26,083 bases of DNA from a virus (taxonomy: Duplodnaviria > Caudoviricetes). Positions 7,489-26,083 of the stretch are shown in pieces. The stretch lies in IMG/VR virus record IMGVR_UViG_3300027323_000004, positions 1 through 26,083 of that record. One strand, 5' to 3'. The position numbers and the translations under genes are program-made. How positions within the stretch are numbered: position 1 is the stretch's first letter; each line of letters begins with the position of its first letter. The notes below the pieces were generated by a model, which worked only from the letters and a program-made list of their open reading frames with translations, ran no database searches and had not been told where the DNA came from.

Positions 7489-7770
7489 ATGAAATTAATA
7501 AATAATATGCTTAAAGGGTATCTTGAAAAACATGGCTATATAGTTTTTAAACCGCTTTGTGAAATACAAAAAATTGTTGAACATACAAGTGATGTAGAAG
7601 AAGTGAAGGTTGATCCGTTGTTTGAAGAAGCGTTTAGTATTGACGAAGATATTGCGATTCAACTTTATGATGCCAATGCATTAAATGCTGATCTTCAAAA
7701 AGAAATTAATGAACTTAAAAAAACCATGCATGTTGACACTGAACAAGCGATTGTTAAGTCTGCTTTGTGA
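7489..7770 (+). CDS. Hypothetical protein, paralogue of 18952-19239
   Basis: GAGG at 7477-7480 favours the ATG at 7489 (93 aa). Shares 'MK.INN.L..YLEKHGY' and 'SIDEDIA.QLYDANA.N..LQKE...LKK' with the - strand copy. Confidence 0.7.
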   Translation: MKLINNMLKGYLEKHGYIVFKPLCEIQKIVEHTSDVEEVKVDPLFEEAFSIDEDIAIQLYDANALNADLQKEINELKKTMHVDTEQAIVKSAL

Positions 7771-18951: not shown

Positions 18952-19239
18952 TCAATCTTTAACTTCAATATTAAGTAATTTTTTAAGAACATCAGCTTCT
19001 TTTTGCAAGACATTATTAAACGCATTGGCATCATAAAGTTGTTGTGCAATATCTTCATCTATGCTCATGGCTTCATCGACAATATCCGAATGGATTATTC
19101 CACGTAATTCAAGATGATCTTCAAATTCTGCCTGCGGTATCCGGTTAAGTATATGGTGGTACTGATCAAGGCTCGGCGCTTCGATGAAGTAGCCGTGTTT
19201 TTCGAGGTATCGCCTAAGTAGGTTGTTAATTATTTTCAT
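18952..19239 (-). CDS. Hypothetical protein, paralogue of 7489-7770
   Basis: 95 aa, ATGA-coupled to the upstream gene, with clear protein similarity to the + strand copy. Confidence 0.7.
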   Translation of the reverse strand: MKIINNLLRRYLEKHGYFIEAPSLDQYHHILNRIPQAEFEDHLELRGIIHSDIVDEAMSIDEDIAQQLYDANAFNNVLQKEADVLKKLLNIEVKD

Positions 19240-20501: not shown

Positions 20502-20546
20502 TTGACATGGAAGAGGTCGGTGGTTCGAATCCACTCGTGCCTACCA
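20502..20546 (+). mobile_element. attP: attP core: 3' half of tRNA-Val(GAC), not a complete tRNA
   Basis: TTGACAT anticodon loop, T-arm GGTGG-TTCGAAT-CCACT, acceptor 3' strand CGTGCCT-A-CCA. No 5' half upstream. Lies about 70 bp past the integrase stop. Confidence 0.88.
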
Positions 20547-20550
20547 ATTA

Positions 20551-20614: not shown

Positions 20615-21655
20615 CTACATTGAAATTTCTGTCCATTTTACTGAATCGTCGTCTAAATACACATCTGTCATGCTTTCTTTTGCATGTCCTAATAAAGCCT
20701 GAATAAATGCTTTAGAATATCCTTGTTGTTCATATTGTCTTGCTCCCAGTGATCTAATTTCATGGAAGGTTACGTTTTCTACGCCTGCCAATTTTGCATA
20801 TTTGGCAAAAGTCTTGCTGAGAAAGTCCGGTTTTACGCTGTTATCCAGTTTTTGTTTATCGTTTGCTCTACGTTTTGAATGACGATGCAGGATATAAGGG
20901 GAGAGTGGAACGGTTTTTGTGGCTTTAATAGACTTTGATAATTCAGGCCACATTAAAATTTTGAGATTAGCGGATTCTTTACCGGCTGATTTTGATTGCT
21001 GAATGTAAAAATAACTGCCTTTAATATCTGCGTAACGCATGGCACACAGATCACCACGCCGCTGCAAGCTAATCCTGGCTAATTCCATAGTGTTTTTGAA
21101 CCACTGGTCTGCTACATCATGTATTAGCTTGTAAGATACGCCTGTAAGCCGCTCTCGCTGTCTTTTAGGTGCGCGCTTACGCAAGGTTGCTTCGGCACAG
21201 TTAAATTGTACTAAGCCCTCAGAAATGGCGTATTTGAATATGTCTATCCACAGTTGACGGTGCTTGATGTAGGAATGCGGTTTAAATCTGGCTAAAAAAT
21301 CTTTCAGGCTCAATACGGTAACGTGCTGTATTGGGGGGAATTGCCCCTTGTATTGGTTTAATTTTTGTTTAATTGCCTTAATAGTTACTGGTCTATATTC
21401 TTTTGTTGGCAAATAATCTTTAACAAAATCATCTAATAGCGTGTCAAAATCTCCAGCTGTGCCTAATAAACCATAATCACACTGTTTTAATAATTGTGCG
21501 TTGGTGTCTTTTGCCAGTCTTATTGCTTCTGCGCGTGGCCGATTAACCGATATGGCACGTTTTGTAATCGGGTGAATGTATTTGAAGTAGCGACCATTAG
21601 GATAAAGGTTATCTGGCAGGTCGAGATTCCGTTTTTGTCGTCTGGGCATTGACAT
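20615..21655 (-). CDS. int: Lambda-type phage integrase (tyrosine recombinase)
   Basis: N-terminal arm-binding domain 'DLPDNLY....YFKYIHP.T'; catalytic QRRGDL, QQSKS, FHEIRSL, LLGH and DVY; adjacent to attP. Confidence 0.93.
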   Translation of the reverse strand: MSMPRRQKRNLDLPDNLYPNGRYFKYIHPITKRAISVNRPRAEAIRLAKDTNAQLLKQCDYGLLGTAGDFDTLLDDFVKDYLPTKEYRPVTIKAIKQKLNQYKGQFPPIQHVTVLSLKDFLARFKPHSYIKHRQLWIDIFKYAISEGLVQFNCAEATLRKRAPKRQRERLTGVSYKLIHDVADQWFKNTMELARISLQRRGDLCAMRYADIKGSYFYIQQSKSAGKESANLKILMWPELSKSIKATKTVPLSPYILHRHSKRRANDKQKLDNSVKPDFLSKTFAKYAKLAGVENVTFHEIRSLGARQYEQQGYSKAFIQALLGHAKESMTDVYLDDDSVKWTEISM

Positions 21656-22168: not shown

Positions 22169-22215
22169 TATTTACTCAGCACCTTGCAAGCTCTTCATAT
22201 TCTTCTGTTATAAAC

Positions 22216-22857
22216 CTAAAACATTGCAGCCTGTCTAGTCTCACGGTCAAACCGTTCCATAGCTGCATCGTAATAATCTTTGTCAATTTCACACCCTACG
22301 AAGTCACAGCCAAAGTAATGGGCGGCTATTGCACTGCTCATTGATCCAGCATGTGTGTCTAATATTCTCATGTCAGGCGTGGCATAGTTTTTTAAGAGCC
22401 ACTTATAAAGTTGCACAGGTTTTTGTGTTGGGTGTATTCTGTTTTCTGGTTGTTGTTTTTTAAAACCATTCCATAACCATTCAAACATCATTGCTGGCTT
22501 ATCTAATGTTGTCGATGCAAGTTCAAAACGGGAATAATTGCCAGAAGTTTTTTTATCCCAACAGATCACACCTCTTGACGGCCAAACCTGTTTAAAATAA
22601 TTAGCTCCCCATATTATTTGCTCATTAGACACTCTTTTTAGCTCTTCAAAATATTCTGTATTTGGGGGGCATTTATCCCACTCTGGACTATGGTAATTTT
22701 TATCTATTGGCGAACTCCACCTATCGCTATTAGCTGCCCCGCTTTGCCCTTTAATCCCAATGCCATAAGGCGGATCAACAATAGCCAAATCAAAGCTATT
22801 ATCAGGCTGGTTAGCCATGTACTCCATACAATCAATATTTAGTAATTCTATTGTCAT
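22216..22857 (-). CDS. DNA N6-adenine/N4-cytosine methyltransferase, beta class (cassette 1)
   Basis: 'DCMEYM...FDLAIVDPPY', 'IIWGANYF', 'HPTQKPV.LY.WLL' and 'ILDTHAGSMSS...GCEIDKDYY'. Confidence 0.93.
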   Translation of the reverse strand: MTIELLNIDCMEYMANQPDNSFDLAIVDPPYGIGIKGQSGAANSDRWSSPIDKNYHSPEWDKCPPNTEYFEELKRVSNEQIIWGANYFKQVWPSRGVICWDKKTSGNYSRFELASTTLDKPAMMFEWLWNGFKKQQPENRIHPTQKPVQLYKWLLKNYATPDMRILDTHAGSMSSAIAAHYFGCDFVGCEIDKDYYDAAMERFDRETRQAAMF

Positions 22858-22877
22858 TCTGTTATCCTAAAAACGGT

Positions 22878-22938
22878 TTATAACAAGGCAATTAAGCGCG
22901 ACGGCAAAACACGCCGCGCCTTATTTTTATCGTTAGTT
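22878..22938 (+). repeat. attC: attC-like site 1
   Basis: R'' TTATAAC - AAGGC - L'' AATTAAGC - GCGACGGC AAAACAC GCCGCG - L' CCTTATT - TTTATC - R' GTTAGTT (61 bp). Confidence 0.85.
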
Positions 22939-23106
22939 GCCTAAGCTCGCATCTTTGATTCTGCGTTTGCGAAGCCTGGTCTCATGTTTCCGCATCTCAT
23001 CCAAATCATCTTTATGCACATAAAAATCATTACGTTTAAACAAACCGCCCGCGCTTAATCTAGCGCGGCGGTCTGACTGTCTTTGTTTGTTTGTTAATGC
23101 AGTCAT
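22933..23106 (-). CDS. 57-aa basic protein, putative ribbon-helix-helix-like regulator (cassette 2); missing from the ORF track
   Basis: MTALTNKQRQSDRRARLSAGGLFKRNDFYVHKDDLDEMRKHETRLRKRRIKDASLGN*. ATGA-coupled to the upstream gene; its TAA stop lies in R' of attC1. Confidence 0.7.
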   Translation of the reverse strand: MTALTNKQRQSDRRARLSAGGLFKRNDFYVHKDDLDEMRKHETRLRKRRIKDASLGN

Positions 23107-23360
23107 TTTATTAATTTTCCGGCTCCTAACTCATTGTATCTAAACTCCATGCGAGCGCCATTTTTACCATAAGCTGTAGCATCTATTGTTTGCTTAAATC
23201 TTGTCAGTGCAGCGTCACTACTAACGTTGTCTGGTATATTAGTTATACGCCTTATCTGCAAAGATGCGCTATTAAAATCACAGGTTTCAGATCGTGGATC
23301 ACCGAGGGTTGTACAAACAGACATTATTTTTACTGTTGTTTTTACCATTATTGATTTCAT
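23103..23360 (-). CDS. Hypothetical protein (cassette 2)
   Basis: 85 aa, tightly packed between its neighbours, with a GGAAG RBS-like sequence upstream. Confidence 0.6.
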   Translation of the reverse strand: MKSIMVKTTVKIMSVCTTLGDPRSETCDFNSASLQIRRITNIPDNVSSDAALTRFKQTIDATAYGKNGARMEFRYNELGAGKLIK

Positions 23361-23362
23361 TT

Positions 23363-23800
23363 TTAATCTCTTCCTTCGATTGCTGCTTTGTAACCAGCGC
23401 TATTTTTTATGCGCTCATGCTTTTCAGTTTCTTCGCGTTCGTATTCTGCTTTTTCTTTTTCAACTTCTTCTGGGTATTTTTCAGCCCACTCTTTTTGAGC
23501 TTCTTCAAGAGCCATTCTTGCTTTTATTATCCGGCTAGGGTCTGAGTAGCTAGCATTTTCGGCATTGTATAACTCACTCATTGCTTTGCCGATTATTTGA
23601 CTATGGTCTTTTTCTGTCTGAGTACGCTCATCAATGTTTTCGATTTTGTATGATAAGCACTCGCCTTTGCCTGCTTTAAGCGTTGCTGCTTTTATCTGAT
23701 CAAACATTGGATCAGATATGCCACCAGGAAATTTATCAGTTATATTAATAATCTCAGTATGGCCTTCAGGTCTTTTGATTTTTATAGTTGTTTTTCTCAT
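23363..23800 (-). CDS. Hypothetical charged protein (first gene of cassette 2)
   Basis: A strong RBS GGAGAAGGA favours the ATG at 23800 (MRKTTIKIKRPEG..., 145 aa) over the tracked TTG start. Confidence 0.7.
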   Translation of the reverse strand: MRKTTIKIKRPEGHTEIINITDKFPGGISDPMFDQIKAATLKAGKGECLSYKIENIDERTQTEKDHSQIIGKAMSELYNAENASYSDPSRIIKARMALEEAQKEWAEKYPEEVEKEKAEYEREETEKHERIKNSAGYKAAIEGRD

Positions 23801-23847
23801 ATCCTTCTCCGTTTTTTGGTTTCGCCCTTTGCTCAACCTATAACTAT

Positions 23848-23876
23848 ATATTACTCCTGTTACCGGTAACAGTCAA
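23848..23876 (-). promoter_or_regulatory. Sigma70-like promoter with a 16-bp palindromic operator
   Basis: TTGACT-N17-TAATAT on the - strand; perfect palindrome CTGTTACCGGTAACAG (23857-23872) covers the spacer and the edge of the -35. Confidence 0.72.
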
Positions 23877-23920
23877 GAGATAAACGCCAAATAATAGAAA
23901 TAAGTTACAAATAAAACGGC

Positions 23921-23992
23921 AACTAACAAAACGCTGCACCGGAATTTTGTTACGCTGCGCTTCACAAAATCCCGTGAGCTGCATCGTTATGC
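23921..23992 (+). repeat. attC: attC-like site 2
   Basis: AACTAAC - AAAAC - GCTGCACC - GGAATTTTGT...ACAAAATCC - CGTGAGC - TGCATC - GTTATGC (72 bp). Confidence 0.85.
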
Positions 23993-24304
23993 GTCAGGAA
24001 CATTTACCGTATGCTCAAAGTCAATGTAGTCGCCACAATGTTTATCTCCACTGCATAAACACGCACCTGGATGATTTAAACGACCACGCTTTGAGCAAAA
24101 TTGCACCATCGCCGGGAGTGTCGGGTCATACGAAACATCGCGCAACCAAAATACCTGGCCGTTAGCAGTGGCCTGTTTCTTGGCTATATAATTATCAGTA
24201 AAATCAAGGAATTTACAGGCATTGAAACGCATAACAAGGCATTCAACTGGACTTGCTGTTTCAGTGGGCTTTTTAACTTCTGTGTTTTCGTTCATGTTCG
24301 TCAT
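23987..24304 (-). CDS. Cys-rich hypothetical protein (cassette 3) whose start lies inside attC3
   Basis: GGAG at 24314-24317, then ATG 24304 (MTNMNENTE...); TAA stop in R' of attC2. Confidence 0.65.
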   Translation of the reverse strand: MTNMNENTEVKKPTETASPVECLVMRFNACKFLDFTDNYIAKKQATANGQVFWLRDVSYDPTLPAMVQFCSKRGRLNHPGACLCSGDKHCGDYIDFEHTVNVPDA

Positions 24305-24359
24305 GTTATTTATCTCCAGCGCTCGCATTCCGCAAGCAAGTTAATTTAATCGGTTATAA
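24229..24359 (+). repeat. attC: attC-like site 3 (long)
   Basis: GCATAAC - AAGGC - ATTCAACT - GGACTTGC...GCAAGCA - AGTTAAT - TTAATCG - GTTATAA (131 bp). L''/L' pair perfectly with the canonical extra C. Confidence 0.82.
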
Positions 24360-24668
24360 CTTAACACCCAAATCATCAGCCATCATGTTGCCATTTATGT
24401 CTGTAAACCCATCAATCCATGTAAACAGCTCACCGATTGCCGGACCCTCGTCATCAAATAATCCGTAATCTGACATTAATGATCTTGCTGCTTTACATAT
24501 ATCAGTGCAATCATCGCACTGTTTAAATGTCATAAAATCACCATCCCATTTACCAGTGATGTTTAAATATTTATCACCTGGCTTTATTGTTTTATGACAC
24601 TCGCAGCATTTATGCTCAATTCTTGCTGTCGGCGTTGTTTCGTTGTAAATTGTCGGTAAATCGCACAT
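24354..24668 (-). CDS. Phage Zn-finger protein (cassette 4)
   Basis: 'TARIEHKCCECHKTIKPGDKY....GKWDGDF.TFKQCDDC'; TAA stop in R' of attC3. Confidence 0.75.
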   Translation of the reverse strand: MCDLPTIYNETTPTARIEHKCCECHKTIKPGDKYLNITGKWDGDFMTFKQCDDCTDICKAARSLMSDYGLFDDEGPAIGELFTWIDGFTDINGNMMADDLGVKL

Positions 24669-24683
24669 GAATTTAATCCAAAG

Positions 24684-24771
24684 TTATAACAATAAAATTA
24701 ACGCAGACCGCCCATACGCTGTTTGGTTTCAACCAGGCTGTGCAGCGGCTGGTTATTAAAAGTCGTTATGT
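24684..24771 (+). repeat. attC: attC-like site 4
   Basis: TTATAAC - AATAA - AATTAACG - CAGACCGC...TGGTT TC AACCA...GCGGCT - GGTTATT - AAAAGTC - GTTATGT (88 bp). Confidence 0.8.
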
Positions 24772-25017
24772 TGTAACAATTCCGCCGCAGTACGGGCAGT
24801 AAACAACGCCATTATCAAGTATTTCACCACCCTCAAAATTCCAGCCATTGCCACACGTTGTTTGGTAATAACCATCGTTATCAAATGTCCAATTGCATTC
24901 ACGAGCCAGTTCGTCAACAGCCTCCCTTAGTATGTTTGCTGTTTTTCTGCTTGCTACATGCGGAGCCATTCCCCTGACTAAATCTCTACCAATATTTACA
25001 ATTTCAATTCTGTTCAT
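24766..25017 (-). CDS. Phage Zn-ribbon protein (cassette 5)
   Basis: 'CNW.....YYQTTCG...F...........YCPYCGG'; GGAG RBS; TAA stop in R' of attC4. Confidence 0.75.
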   Translation of the reverse strand: MNRIEIVNIGRDLVRGMAPHVASRKTANILREAVDELARECNWTFDNDGYYQTTCGNGWNFEGGEILDNGVVYCPYCGGIVTT

Positions 25018-25031
25018 AATTTAAACTCCAA

Positions 25032-25105
25032 ACATAACAAGGCGCATTAAGTCGGACATTTTGTCCGCTGCGCTCCCAAAATTCCGCTTATGCGCGACGT
25101 TATAT
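25032..25105 (+). repeat. attC: attC-like site 5
   Basis: ACATAAC - AAGGCG - CATTAAGT - CGGACATTTTG...CAAAATTCC - GCTTATG - CGCGAC - GTTATAT (74 bp). Confidence 0.85.
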
Positions 25106-25480
25106 GGCTATAGGTAATTCGCCGTCAGGCAAAATCCACAGCCAGTAAATATTGTGGTAATCCTGCACTTTTGTAACTGCTGGATAAAATTCGACTCCAG
25201 TAGCGTCGTCACCAAACAATTCGTTTTTTATCGCCTGCATTTCGCGCCAGTGGTTGGGTATCGGTTTATCATCATGCCGCTGCACCATTGCTTTTATTGC
25301 AGTTATTCCGCCAGTCATATTCGCGTTATCATCAATCATCACAACATATCGGTTGTTCTTAAATGCTCTCGTCATCCAATCAGGATGGCTTTGCAAATTC
25401 AAATCAACAGGCAACAATTTACCTCTCGGTTTTTTCAGTAGCTTTCGTGCTGCTGATTTTTGTGCTTTATTTCTACTCAT
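25100..25480 (-). CDS. Conserved phage protein, DUF7694-like (cassette 6)
   Basis: 'QRHDDKPI..HWREMQAIKNELFG....GVEFYP......D..NIYWLW'; TAA stop in R' of attC5. Confidence 0.7.
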   Translation of the reverse strand: MSRNKAQKSAARKLLKKPRGKLLPVDLNLQSHPDWMTRAFKNNRYVVMIDDNANMTGGITAIKAMVQRHDDKPIPNHWREMQAIKNELFGDDATGVEFYPAVTKVQDYHNIYWLWILPDGELPIAI

Positions 25481-25491
25481 GTAAAATCACC

Positions 25492-25516
25492 ATATAACAA
25501 GGCGGTCAACTCGGAC
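25492..25516 (+). repeat. attC-like half site 6 (left arm only)
   Basis: ATATAAC - AAGGC - GGTCAACT - CGGAC, with no correctly spaced L'/R' downstream. Confidence 0.7.
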
Positions 25517-25527
25517 ATTCATTCTCA

Positions 25528-25716
25528 TTAAAATGCTCCTGTAGCTATTTTTTGTACGCTAGACCCTGGTACTCCGGTTATTCGGCTTATGCCTTCAAGC
25601 GTCAAAAATCCATGATTATTTACTTTACCAGTGCCTCGGCAAAACCAGTATAAATACGTAACCAGGCAACGGGTTGCTCTGCTGTGTTTTAGTCTGTTAT
25701 TTGTGTGATTAGTCAT
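25528..25716 (-). CDS. Small HTH-like protein
   Basis: 'TLEGISRITGVPGSSVQKIATG' is HTH-like; TAATG-coupled to the upstream gene. Confidence 0.55.
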   Translation of the reverse strand: MTNHTNNRLKHSRATRCLVTYLYWFCRGTGKVNNHGFLTLEGISRITGVPGSSVQKIATGAF

Positions 25717-26081
25717 TAAGCAGCCTTATCCTGTTGCAGTTTTATATACAATTCATCAACCGCTTTTAGCAGTTTCTTTTGTACGCGAAGCGCCACCGCT
25801 TTCAGTTTTTTATCCTCAACTAACGGCATGTTTTGTATAGCTGCTTGGACATCATCAGCGTAATCACAAAGCACCCGTTCCGGGGACAATTCATTTGGTT
25901 TTTCAATATGCTTTTTAATTAATTCTGGTTGCGCATCTACTGGCTGCTCAATACGTTTCGCTTCAACACGTTCTGCTTCAAGTCTTTCAGCTTCAATACG
26001 CAGATCTTCAACACGTTCTGCTTCAAGTCTTTCAGCTTCAATACGCAGATCTTCAACACGTTCTGCTTCAAGTCTTTCAGC
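25716..26081 (-). CDS. C-terminal part of a coiled-coil phage protein (5'-truncated by the window edge; not in the ORF track)
   Basis: Open frame (AERLEAERVEDLRIE)x2-AERLEAERVEAKRIEQPVDAQ...KLQQDKAA*. Confidence 0.7.
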   Translation of the reverse strand, partial: AERLEAERVEDLRIEAERLEAERVEDLRIEAERLEAERVEAKRIEQPVDAQPELIKKHIEKPNELSPERVLCDYADDVQAAIQNMPLVEDKKLKAVALRVQKKLLKAVDELYIKLQQDKAA

Positions 26082-26083
26082 TT
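25961..26083. repeat. Perfect 45-bp in-frame tandem repeat (at least 2.7 copies)
   Basis: Unit CTTCAACACGTTCTGCTTCAAGTCTTTCAGCTTCAATACGCAGAT starts at 25961, 26006 and 26051, with a 15-bp sub-period. Confidence 0.95.

Follow-up and report, generated by a model that had tools for sequence, protein, structure and literature searches.

Viral record IMGVR_UViG_3300027323_000004 (Duplodnaviria; Caudoviricetes), a linear sequence of 26,083 nucleotides that was analysed at full length and is called the window below, carries six integron-type gene cassettes whose genes lie on the bottom strand of their attC recombination sites. The array is likely an integrase-less phage integron whose cassettes are likely shuffled by the integron integrase IntI acting in trans, a reading we hold with good confidence. 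Integrons have been treated as bacterial tools and, in recent work, as repositories of anti-phage genes. Their integrase acts on the folded bottom strand of attC, which it recombines at G|TT, and the choice of attC strand has been explained as aligning genes with the cassette promoter (Pc). In the window each unit consists of a stop codon, one or more genes, a start, and then its own attC. Such units occur beside other neighbours, joined at G|TT, and in related phages like arrays immediately precede an intact intI of the same strand.

The array spans 22207-25592 and contains five intact attC sites, one decayed site, six cassettes, and eight open reading frames (ORFs). The original prediction, made from the letters alone, had placed it at 22878..25105; it in fact begins at 22207 and ends near 25592. 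Sites were scored with a bottom-strand model trained on 49 host attC sites picked for a canonical left gene. All six sites score on the minus strand (17.7–59.8 bits) and the best plus-strand score over any of them is 10.4 bits, which supports the earlier claim that plus is the attC top strand. Since the window contributed in part to the search pattern, the high scores obtained for attC-B and attC-E are not fully independent, whereas the calibration of polarity is. The five intact sites (20.4–59.8 bits) contain R''-L''-L'-R' hairpin boxes with AAC/GTT, and in all five the minus strand folds better than the plus strand.

The left end of the array is a bare core site (22207..22213, plus strand; crossover after 22207), an attI- or attG-like insertion point with no attC model match to its left. 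Because this core complements R'' of attC-A, the methyltransferase gene next to it counts as cassette 0 and the cassettes number six. Cassette 0 (22208-22932, 725 bp) encodes a 213-amino-acid (aa) DNA methyltransferase of the N6_N4_Mtase family (22216..22857, minus) and carries attC-A (22878..22938, 61 nt, 30.1 bits); its homologues were found in arrays adjoining phage IntI. Cassette 1 (22933-23986, 1054 bp) holds ORFs of 157 aa (likely start 23800), 85 aa, and 57 aa within 22933..23836 (minus), none with a PHROG match or a Pfam match above cut-off, the 57-aa protein giving a weak MazE-like lead. Its site, attC-B (23921..23992, 72 nt, 59.6 bits), is identical over 70 nt in an unrelated phage locus (L020) bearing other cargo and matches a host site at 92.6% over 68 nt. 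Cassette 2 (23987-24353, 367 bp) encodes 113 aa (23987..24328, minus), starting inside attC-C (24229..24359, 131 nt, 20.4 bits), likely at an ATG at 24304 behind GGAG. Cassette 3 (24354-24765, 412 bp) encodes a 104-aa Cys-rich phage protein (24354..24668, minus; phrog_7314) and carries attC-D (24684..24771, 88 nt, 32.9 bits), while cassette 4 (24766-25099, 334 bp) encodes an 83-aa phage protein (24766..25017, minus; phrog_10312) and carries attC-E (25032..25105, 74 nt, 59.8 bits). Cassette 5, from 25100, encodes a 126-aa DUF7694 protein (25100..25480, minus) and carries the decayed attC-F (25492..25592; 17.7 bits, E 0.013), which retains R'' and the left L box, has a damaged R' and no stable fold, and is likely immobile. 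For every attC, plus is the top strand and the score given is that of the minus strand.

As had been predicted, the TAA of the last ORF is the complement of the TTA in R' in five of six cassettes: the stops at 22933, 23987, 24354, 24766, and 25100 lie in R' of attC-A to attC-E, respectively. The gene of cassette 0 ends in a TAG at 22216, 8 nt inside the cassette. Between 18900 and 26083, 11 of 200 TTA triplets end a minus-strand ORF of at least 50 aa, giving p ~3e-6 for five of six. In every cassette the R' at the start is complementary to the R'' at the end, and the two match over all 7 nt in 6/6, where the chance per junction is 0.054 (179 surveyed sites) and 2 of 720 permutations match fully.

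Because the 7-nt cores are symmetric, polarity must be calibrated from outside. One attC pattern scanned over genomes gave at least 121 host loci, of which 108 were parsed and 74 were unique. The gene to the left of these unique sites lies on the top strand in 57, on the bottom strand in 2, and was uncalled in 15; an IntI-like match was present in 12 host loci, and all of them have intI on the R'' side in bottom-strand orientation. The extra unpaired base in the left L box on the plus strand, from which the original prediction had argued, was recovered by hand parse in all six sites. The spacer asymmetry on which it had also relied is present in most of the intact sites (left/right lengths on plus of 5/6, 5/6, 5/7, 5/7, and 6/6) but is weak evidence, as 60 of the 108 host sites have spacers of 5/5. 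According to the available part of Bouvier et al. (2009, PMC2727003), the first unpaired base and not the spacer sets attC strand choice, which makes the spacer argument the weaker of the two. Gene strand was called per cassette by codon score. The eight ORFs, all on the minus strand as claimed, score 9–45, the best overlapping plus-strand ORF scores 5.8, and none of the eight has the orientation of a canonical cassette gene.

Contigs from several runs indicate that these units have changed neighbours. In run X4, a contig of 339 nt covering 24764-25102, comprising ORF 4 and attC-E, stands at depth 109 against 64–70 for the flanking pieces, which identifies the unit as a gene plus the site at its 5' end; another contig of that run begins at 24353 (depth 129). 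Together with the model's strand call and the host calibration, this piece bears out the proposal of a mirror design with attC at the 5' end of each gene. Run X9 supplied three further contigs. In the first, 79 nt of attC-D lead directly into position 22207, with 5 letters shared at the join, an arrangement compatible with either a 2558-bp circle or a new cassette order; the second has cassette 2 before a variant cassette 0 (both at depth 3.6–6), and the third leaves cassette 4 at 24764. Run X4 is marked as a possible source of the window DNA, and X9 is not. These joins and piece edges (22207, 24353, 24764, and 25102), seen in few contigs, fall at G|TT. The alternative neighbours show 0 differences over the ends of cassettes 0 and 4, which together with the matching core ends in 6/6 cassettes argues for recent exchange at the crossover. 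The cassettes are apparently mobile. An apparent skip from 23932 to 24685 in runs X1, X4, and X7 was rejected as a deletion, since its left part has 18 differences, and is read as another cassette sharing the leader and attC-D. Part of attC-D (24684-24757) is common to a different cassette in X1, X2, and X7 through a 54-nt shared piece, so that the same site body is found with other cargo.

Homologues of the cargo point to its source. Phage homologues lacking attC were found for the 126-aa protein (60%, in L319) and the 104-aa protein (L321 and L322), that is, in 3/3 loci, and these imply that the cargo consists of ordinary phage genes. In L236 a homologue of cassette 3 occupies the first cassette position ahead of a phage IntI.

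The same attC pattern applied to viral sequences gave at least 80 loci, one of them the window phage, of which 71 were parsed and 49 were unique. At 35 of these 49 sites the left gene occupies the bottom strand, at 9 the top strand, and at 5 it was uncalled; six of the nine top-strand cases come from seven records presumed, by their ids, to be isolate genomes. A stop exactly at R' is found at 28/49 viral and 9/74 host sites (Fisher p 1.8e-7). A further set, assembled blind to attC, comprised 79 viral loci that encode relatives of the cassette 0 methyltransferase; it gave 86 model matches in 27 loci, with the bottom strand being the gene strand in 85. Cassettes were counted in 19 of those 27 loci after near-copies and most single-site loci were dropped, and 47 of 53 were inverted, none canonical, and six uncalled. 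The corresponding host set (27 of at least 121 loci, with long flanks and two or more matches, whose central sites are the training sites) had 81 of 109 cassettes canonical, 7 bottom-strand calls that were short and weak, and 21 uncalled. The stop lies in the downstream core in 29/47 inverted viral cassettes (R') vs 17/81 canonical host cassettes. The reversed layout recurs in many further uncultured phages, some of which have an integron enzyme of their own. The phage locus mentioned above, L020 (2043-3654), has Mu-like genes, judging from translations, and five attC sites of the inverted type, one of which shares its body with attC-B.

With six co-oriented attC sites in 2.7 kb and no neighbouring intI in a record that is 43% complete, the array is by definition a CALIN (cluster of attC sites lacking an integron integrase). 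The IntI profile TIGR02249 gives the phage integrase of the window 13 bits, against a cut-off of 265, and no intI was found within its 26 kb; the enzyme is thus likely supplied in trans. Complete integrons, with intI beside the array, do occur in relatives. Three of 50 viral records (G016, G024, and G042) have an IntI above cut-off (372–419 bits), on contigs that also carry primase, head, tail, or integrase genes. Each of the three has intI behind the array and on the bottom strand, with the cargo oriented towards it and the first crossover 27–44 nt from its start. A phage integrase follows intI in G016 and G042, that of G042 being of the same kind as the integrase of the window (27%). The viral IntI loci were gathered by aligning these three IntI and taking the best 80 of 310 viral relatives, a set that leans towards those three. 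In 90 of their 94 attC model matches the bottom strand is on the intI strand, which is not the inverted-integrase arrangement, where intI lies on the top strand. After one partial match and ten below 20 bits were dropped, the remaining 83 matches made 36 of 40 loci callable: 33 have inverted arrays upstream of an intI-like gene on its strand, 2 are tied, and 1 is canonical. An attI motif is shared by 11 of 13 inspected phage loci, and in one group of relatives ~27–48 nt separate attI from the start of intI, which is scant space for Pc or a promoter of intI. LexA-like boxes occur by intI in 4/33 inverted phage loci vs 4/9 host loci; start calls were rough, and the difference is suggestive only.

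Several other arrangements were seen among these loci. G016 has a second inverted array of opposite orientation (L213, 12232-12582), which has a near-copy of the phage's attI at its head and no adjacent intI. Virus Rctr41k (KX853513; L299, 4680-5678) has an IntI-like gene annotated xerD, 42% to P0001, in a record without an attC match, and several viral IntI relatives near it in the tree likewise have none. L256 pairs a viral IntI with a canonical-type array downstream, an inverted-integrase layout, and L128 is a host IntI with canonical cassettes that is nested among phage IntIs in a quick tree.

Clusters of attC in phages have been described before: Qi et al. (2023, PMC9892861) report 17 phage CALINs. 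Those of TJE1, PH101, P12002L, and ctTUS972 resemble the window array in being intI-less and often having methyltransferase cassettes. In that work IntI1 recombined PH101 sites with a preference for the bottom strand, TJE1 and PH101 were termed typical, and the complete integrons listed were of host or class 1 types; inversion is not mentioned in the main text or in part 1 of the supplement. We find that PH101 is inverted, since its two published bottom-strand attC sequences (PMC9892861) lie on the coding strand, and that the ctTUS972 array is inverted as well, whereas TJE1 is canonical (one model match).

Several findings weigh against our interpretation. Neither the window contig nor its twin contig G001 (43% and 39% complete) has an IntI, and of the 19 records with a completeness of 90% or more a single one has an IntI above cut-off, so that most arrays lack an enzyme of their own. 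The IntIs of inverted arrays do not form one clade in the quick tree, where they are mixed with host IntIs in several groups among many open forks; a single origin thus finds no support there. Compared with shuffled sequences, attC-B and attC-E alone fold clearly better (z ~-3), attC-A, attC-C, and attC-D reach z ~-1.2, and attC-F has no fold; the unpaired base on the bottom strand is the usual G in just two of six sites. The left end at 22207 shares only part of the phage attI motif, though its spacing from the next start (38 nt) matches that of phage attI. For each X9 join there is a single short contig (depth 3.6–6). Finally, inversion is not universal, as the related methyltransferase of TJE1 sits in a canonical cassette.

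Of the alternatives, the one that fares best, though we think it unlikely, is that genuine, inverted cassettes are mobilised by a recombinase other than IntI, be it the adjacent lambda-type integrase (20615..21655, minus; domains Arm-DNA-bind_1 and Phage_integrase) or an unrecognised phage enzyme. The absence of IntI from the window and from 18 of the 19 near-complete records would fit, as would the integrase's distance of ~550 bp from the array. However, this integrase, which is not an IntI, has an arm-binding domain and adjoins a tRNA-like attachment core of its own, 33 viral loci pair like arrays with IntI-like genes, and the sites of PH101 are recombined by IntI1 (PMC9892861).

It is improbable that ordinary host cassettes were dropped by IntI at secondary (attG) sites, with a few inverted by chance. 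IntI inserts at short GWT sites in either orientation, according to the accessible part of Loot et al. (10.1101/2022.09.11.507474), and the left end of the array fits GWT; attC-B resembles a host site, and TJE1 has the look of such an insertion. This route would predict canonical arrays because host cassettes are canonical (81/109), contrary to the viral ones, in which 8/8 window ORFs and 47/47 called cassettes are inverted, and the cargo homologues are plain phage genes without attC. As far as that part of the source goes, an attG insertion does not turn a gene round with respect to its attC, unlike the inversion here, although a bare GWT site can likewise seed cassettes away from an integron.

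A little less credible still is the idea that the sites are relics derived from attC, kept as signals for translation or RNA structure after recombination was lost. One ORF does start inside attC-C, attC-F is decayed, attC-A, attC-C, and attC-D fold weakly, and the twin contig is 100% identical over the array, but against it stand the matching core ends in six of six cassettes and the alternative neighbours with 0 differences at the ends of cassettes 0 and 4. The idea that plus is really the recombinogenic bottom strand and the array canonical, for which the symmetric cores and the TAA inside RYYTAAC (a usual canonical feature) could be cited, is scarcely tenable, being contradicted by the model scores and host calibration, the unit of ORF 4 with attC-E, and the lack of a site left of cassette 0. 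The 20 largest families returned by a repeat finder include none made of these sites, a point against homologous recombination among them.

For an inverted array served by IntI in trans, we hypothesize the following. IntI would bind the folded bottom strand and cut at G|TT as in bacteria, so that the chemistry would be unchanged and the cargo alone turned round. The phage would set attI and intI inside a one-way early operon. Because intI is always on the bottom strand behind attI, cargo in such an operon could be expressed only on that strand, which is the likely reason for the inversion. In the window the virion genes point rightward, and from ~18.9 kb onward every gene points leftward; the array is presumably read by this leftward phage transcript, as the original prediction had it, given that the neighbouring genes all point left. 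A single leftward transcript would read the oldest cassette first, the newest last, and then intI. A gene of 98 aa occupies the slot where relatives have intI, so the window phage would borrow IntI from its host or from a co-infecting phage. No plus-strand promoter-like match lies just left of 22207, in a scan whose total equals chance, and a Pc there would run antisense to all eight ORFs. Cassettes passing from host to phage or back would come to lie antisense, and the geometry predicts that phage cassettes would be silent in a host integron, cassette 1 being the exception.

Cassette 1 appears to carry its own promoter and may express itself. A promoter-like site at 23848..23876 (minus) has 9/12 consensus bases, although such matches in this region are at chance level, and holds a 16-bp perfect palindrome at 23857-23872. 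The palindrome fits the LexA box pattern and is the sole such match in the window. L324 and contigs of runs X1 and X7 have a similar leader; the related leader in X1/X7 differs at eight positions in or beside the palindrome, which makes it a likely operator for the cassette's own small regulator rather than a LexA box. A frame of 46 codons (23844-23984, minus) begins 2 nt past the stop of cassette 2, inside attC-B. Translation of this frame, which has a negative codon score, could take ribosomes through the attC-B hairpin.

Elsewhere in the window, the likely attP core of the phage integrase (~20502-20548) matches the 3' part of a host tRNA gene, and loose contig ends in several runs run on into tRNA sequence. 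Rfam gave one match over the window, tRNA-like and at this attachment site, and ARAGORN found no gene. In a BLAST of the array against cultured phages the methyltransferase alone was matched, and close relatives sought for the window integrase, the 157-aa ORF, and the 83-aa ORF were just the same phage or marginal matches. A 99-nt inverted repeat (7624-7722 and 18979-19077), with two small ORFs (108 and 95 aa) that resemble and face one another, flanks the gene of a 3640-aa virion protein, and at 25933-26083 the last gene contains a 15/45-nt tandem repeat that encodes a charged repeat and within which the contig ends.

Compared with known systems, the phage arrays share with canonical integrons, to judge from the available part of PMC2727003, the anatomy and polarity of attC, the G|TT crossover, and matching core ends, and their relatives have intI on the bottom strand behind attI. 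They differ from canonical integrons in that the genes are carried on the bottom strand, with attC at their 5' end and the stop in R', not R''. Inverted-integrase integrons, such as those of Treponema (Cury et al. 2016, PMC4889954, in its accessible part), also have intI and cassette genes on one strand, but they flip intI relative to attC, whereas the phage relatives keep the intI strand and flip the cargo. The portions available of PMC8876359, PMC8618304, PMC13366799, and PMC13676570 contain nothing on inverted phage cassettes, and in the literature covered, largely without subscription papers, we found no description of such cassettes or of phage integrons with this layout.

Beyond this array, we think the chances are about even that phages run mirror-image integrons, with their own intI and a compact attI in an early operon and a cassette pool drawn from ordinary phage genes and traded between unrelated phages, with the opposite polarity acting as a firewall. 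If so, host cassettes, anti-phage ones included, would be antisense in phage arrays and phage cassettes antisense in host arrays, with one enzyme moving both. A widespread reversed design with an intact phage IntI would mean that phages shuffle their own accessory genes, methyltransferases included, by the same machine, and would provide a site-specific route to phage mosaicism. The genesis of cassettes is also opened to testing, since gene families are found both with attC and without it, identical attC bodies are joined to different genes, and the stop lies in whichever core is downstream.

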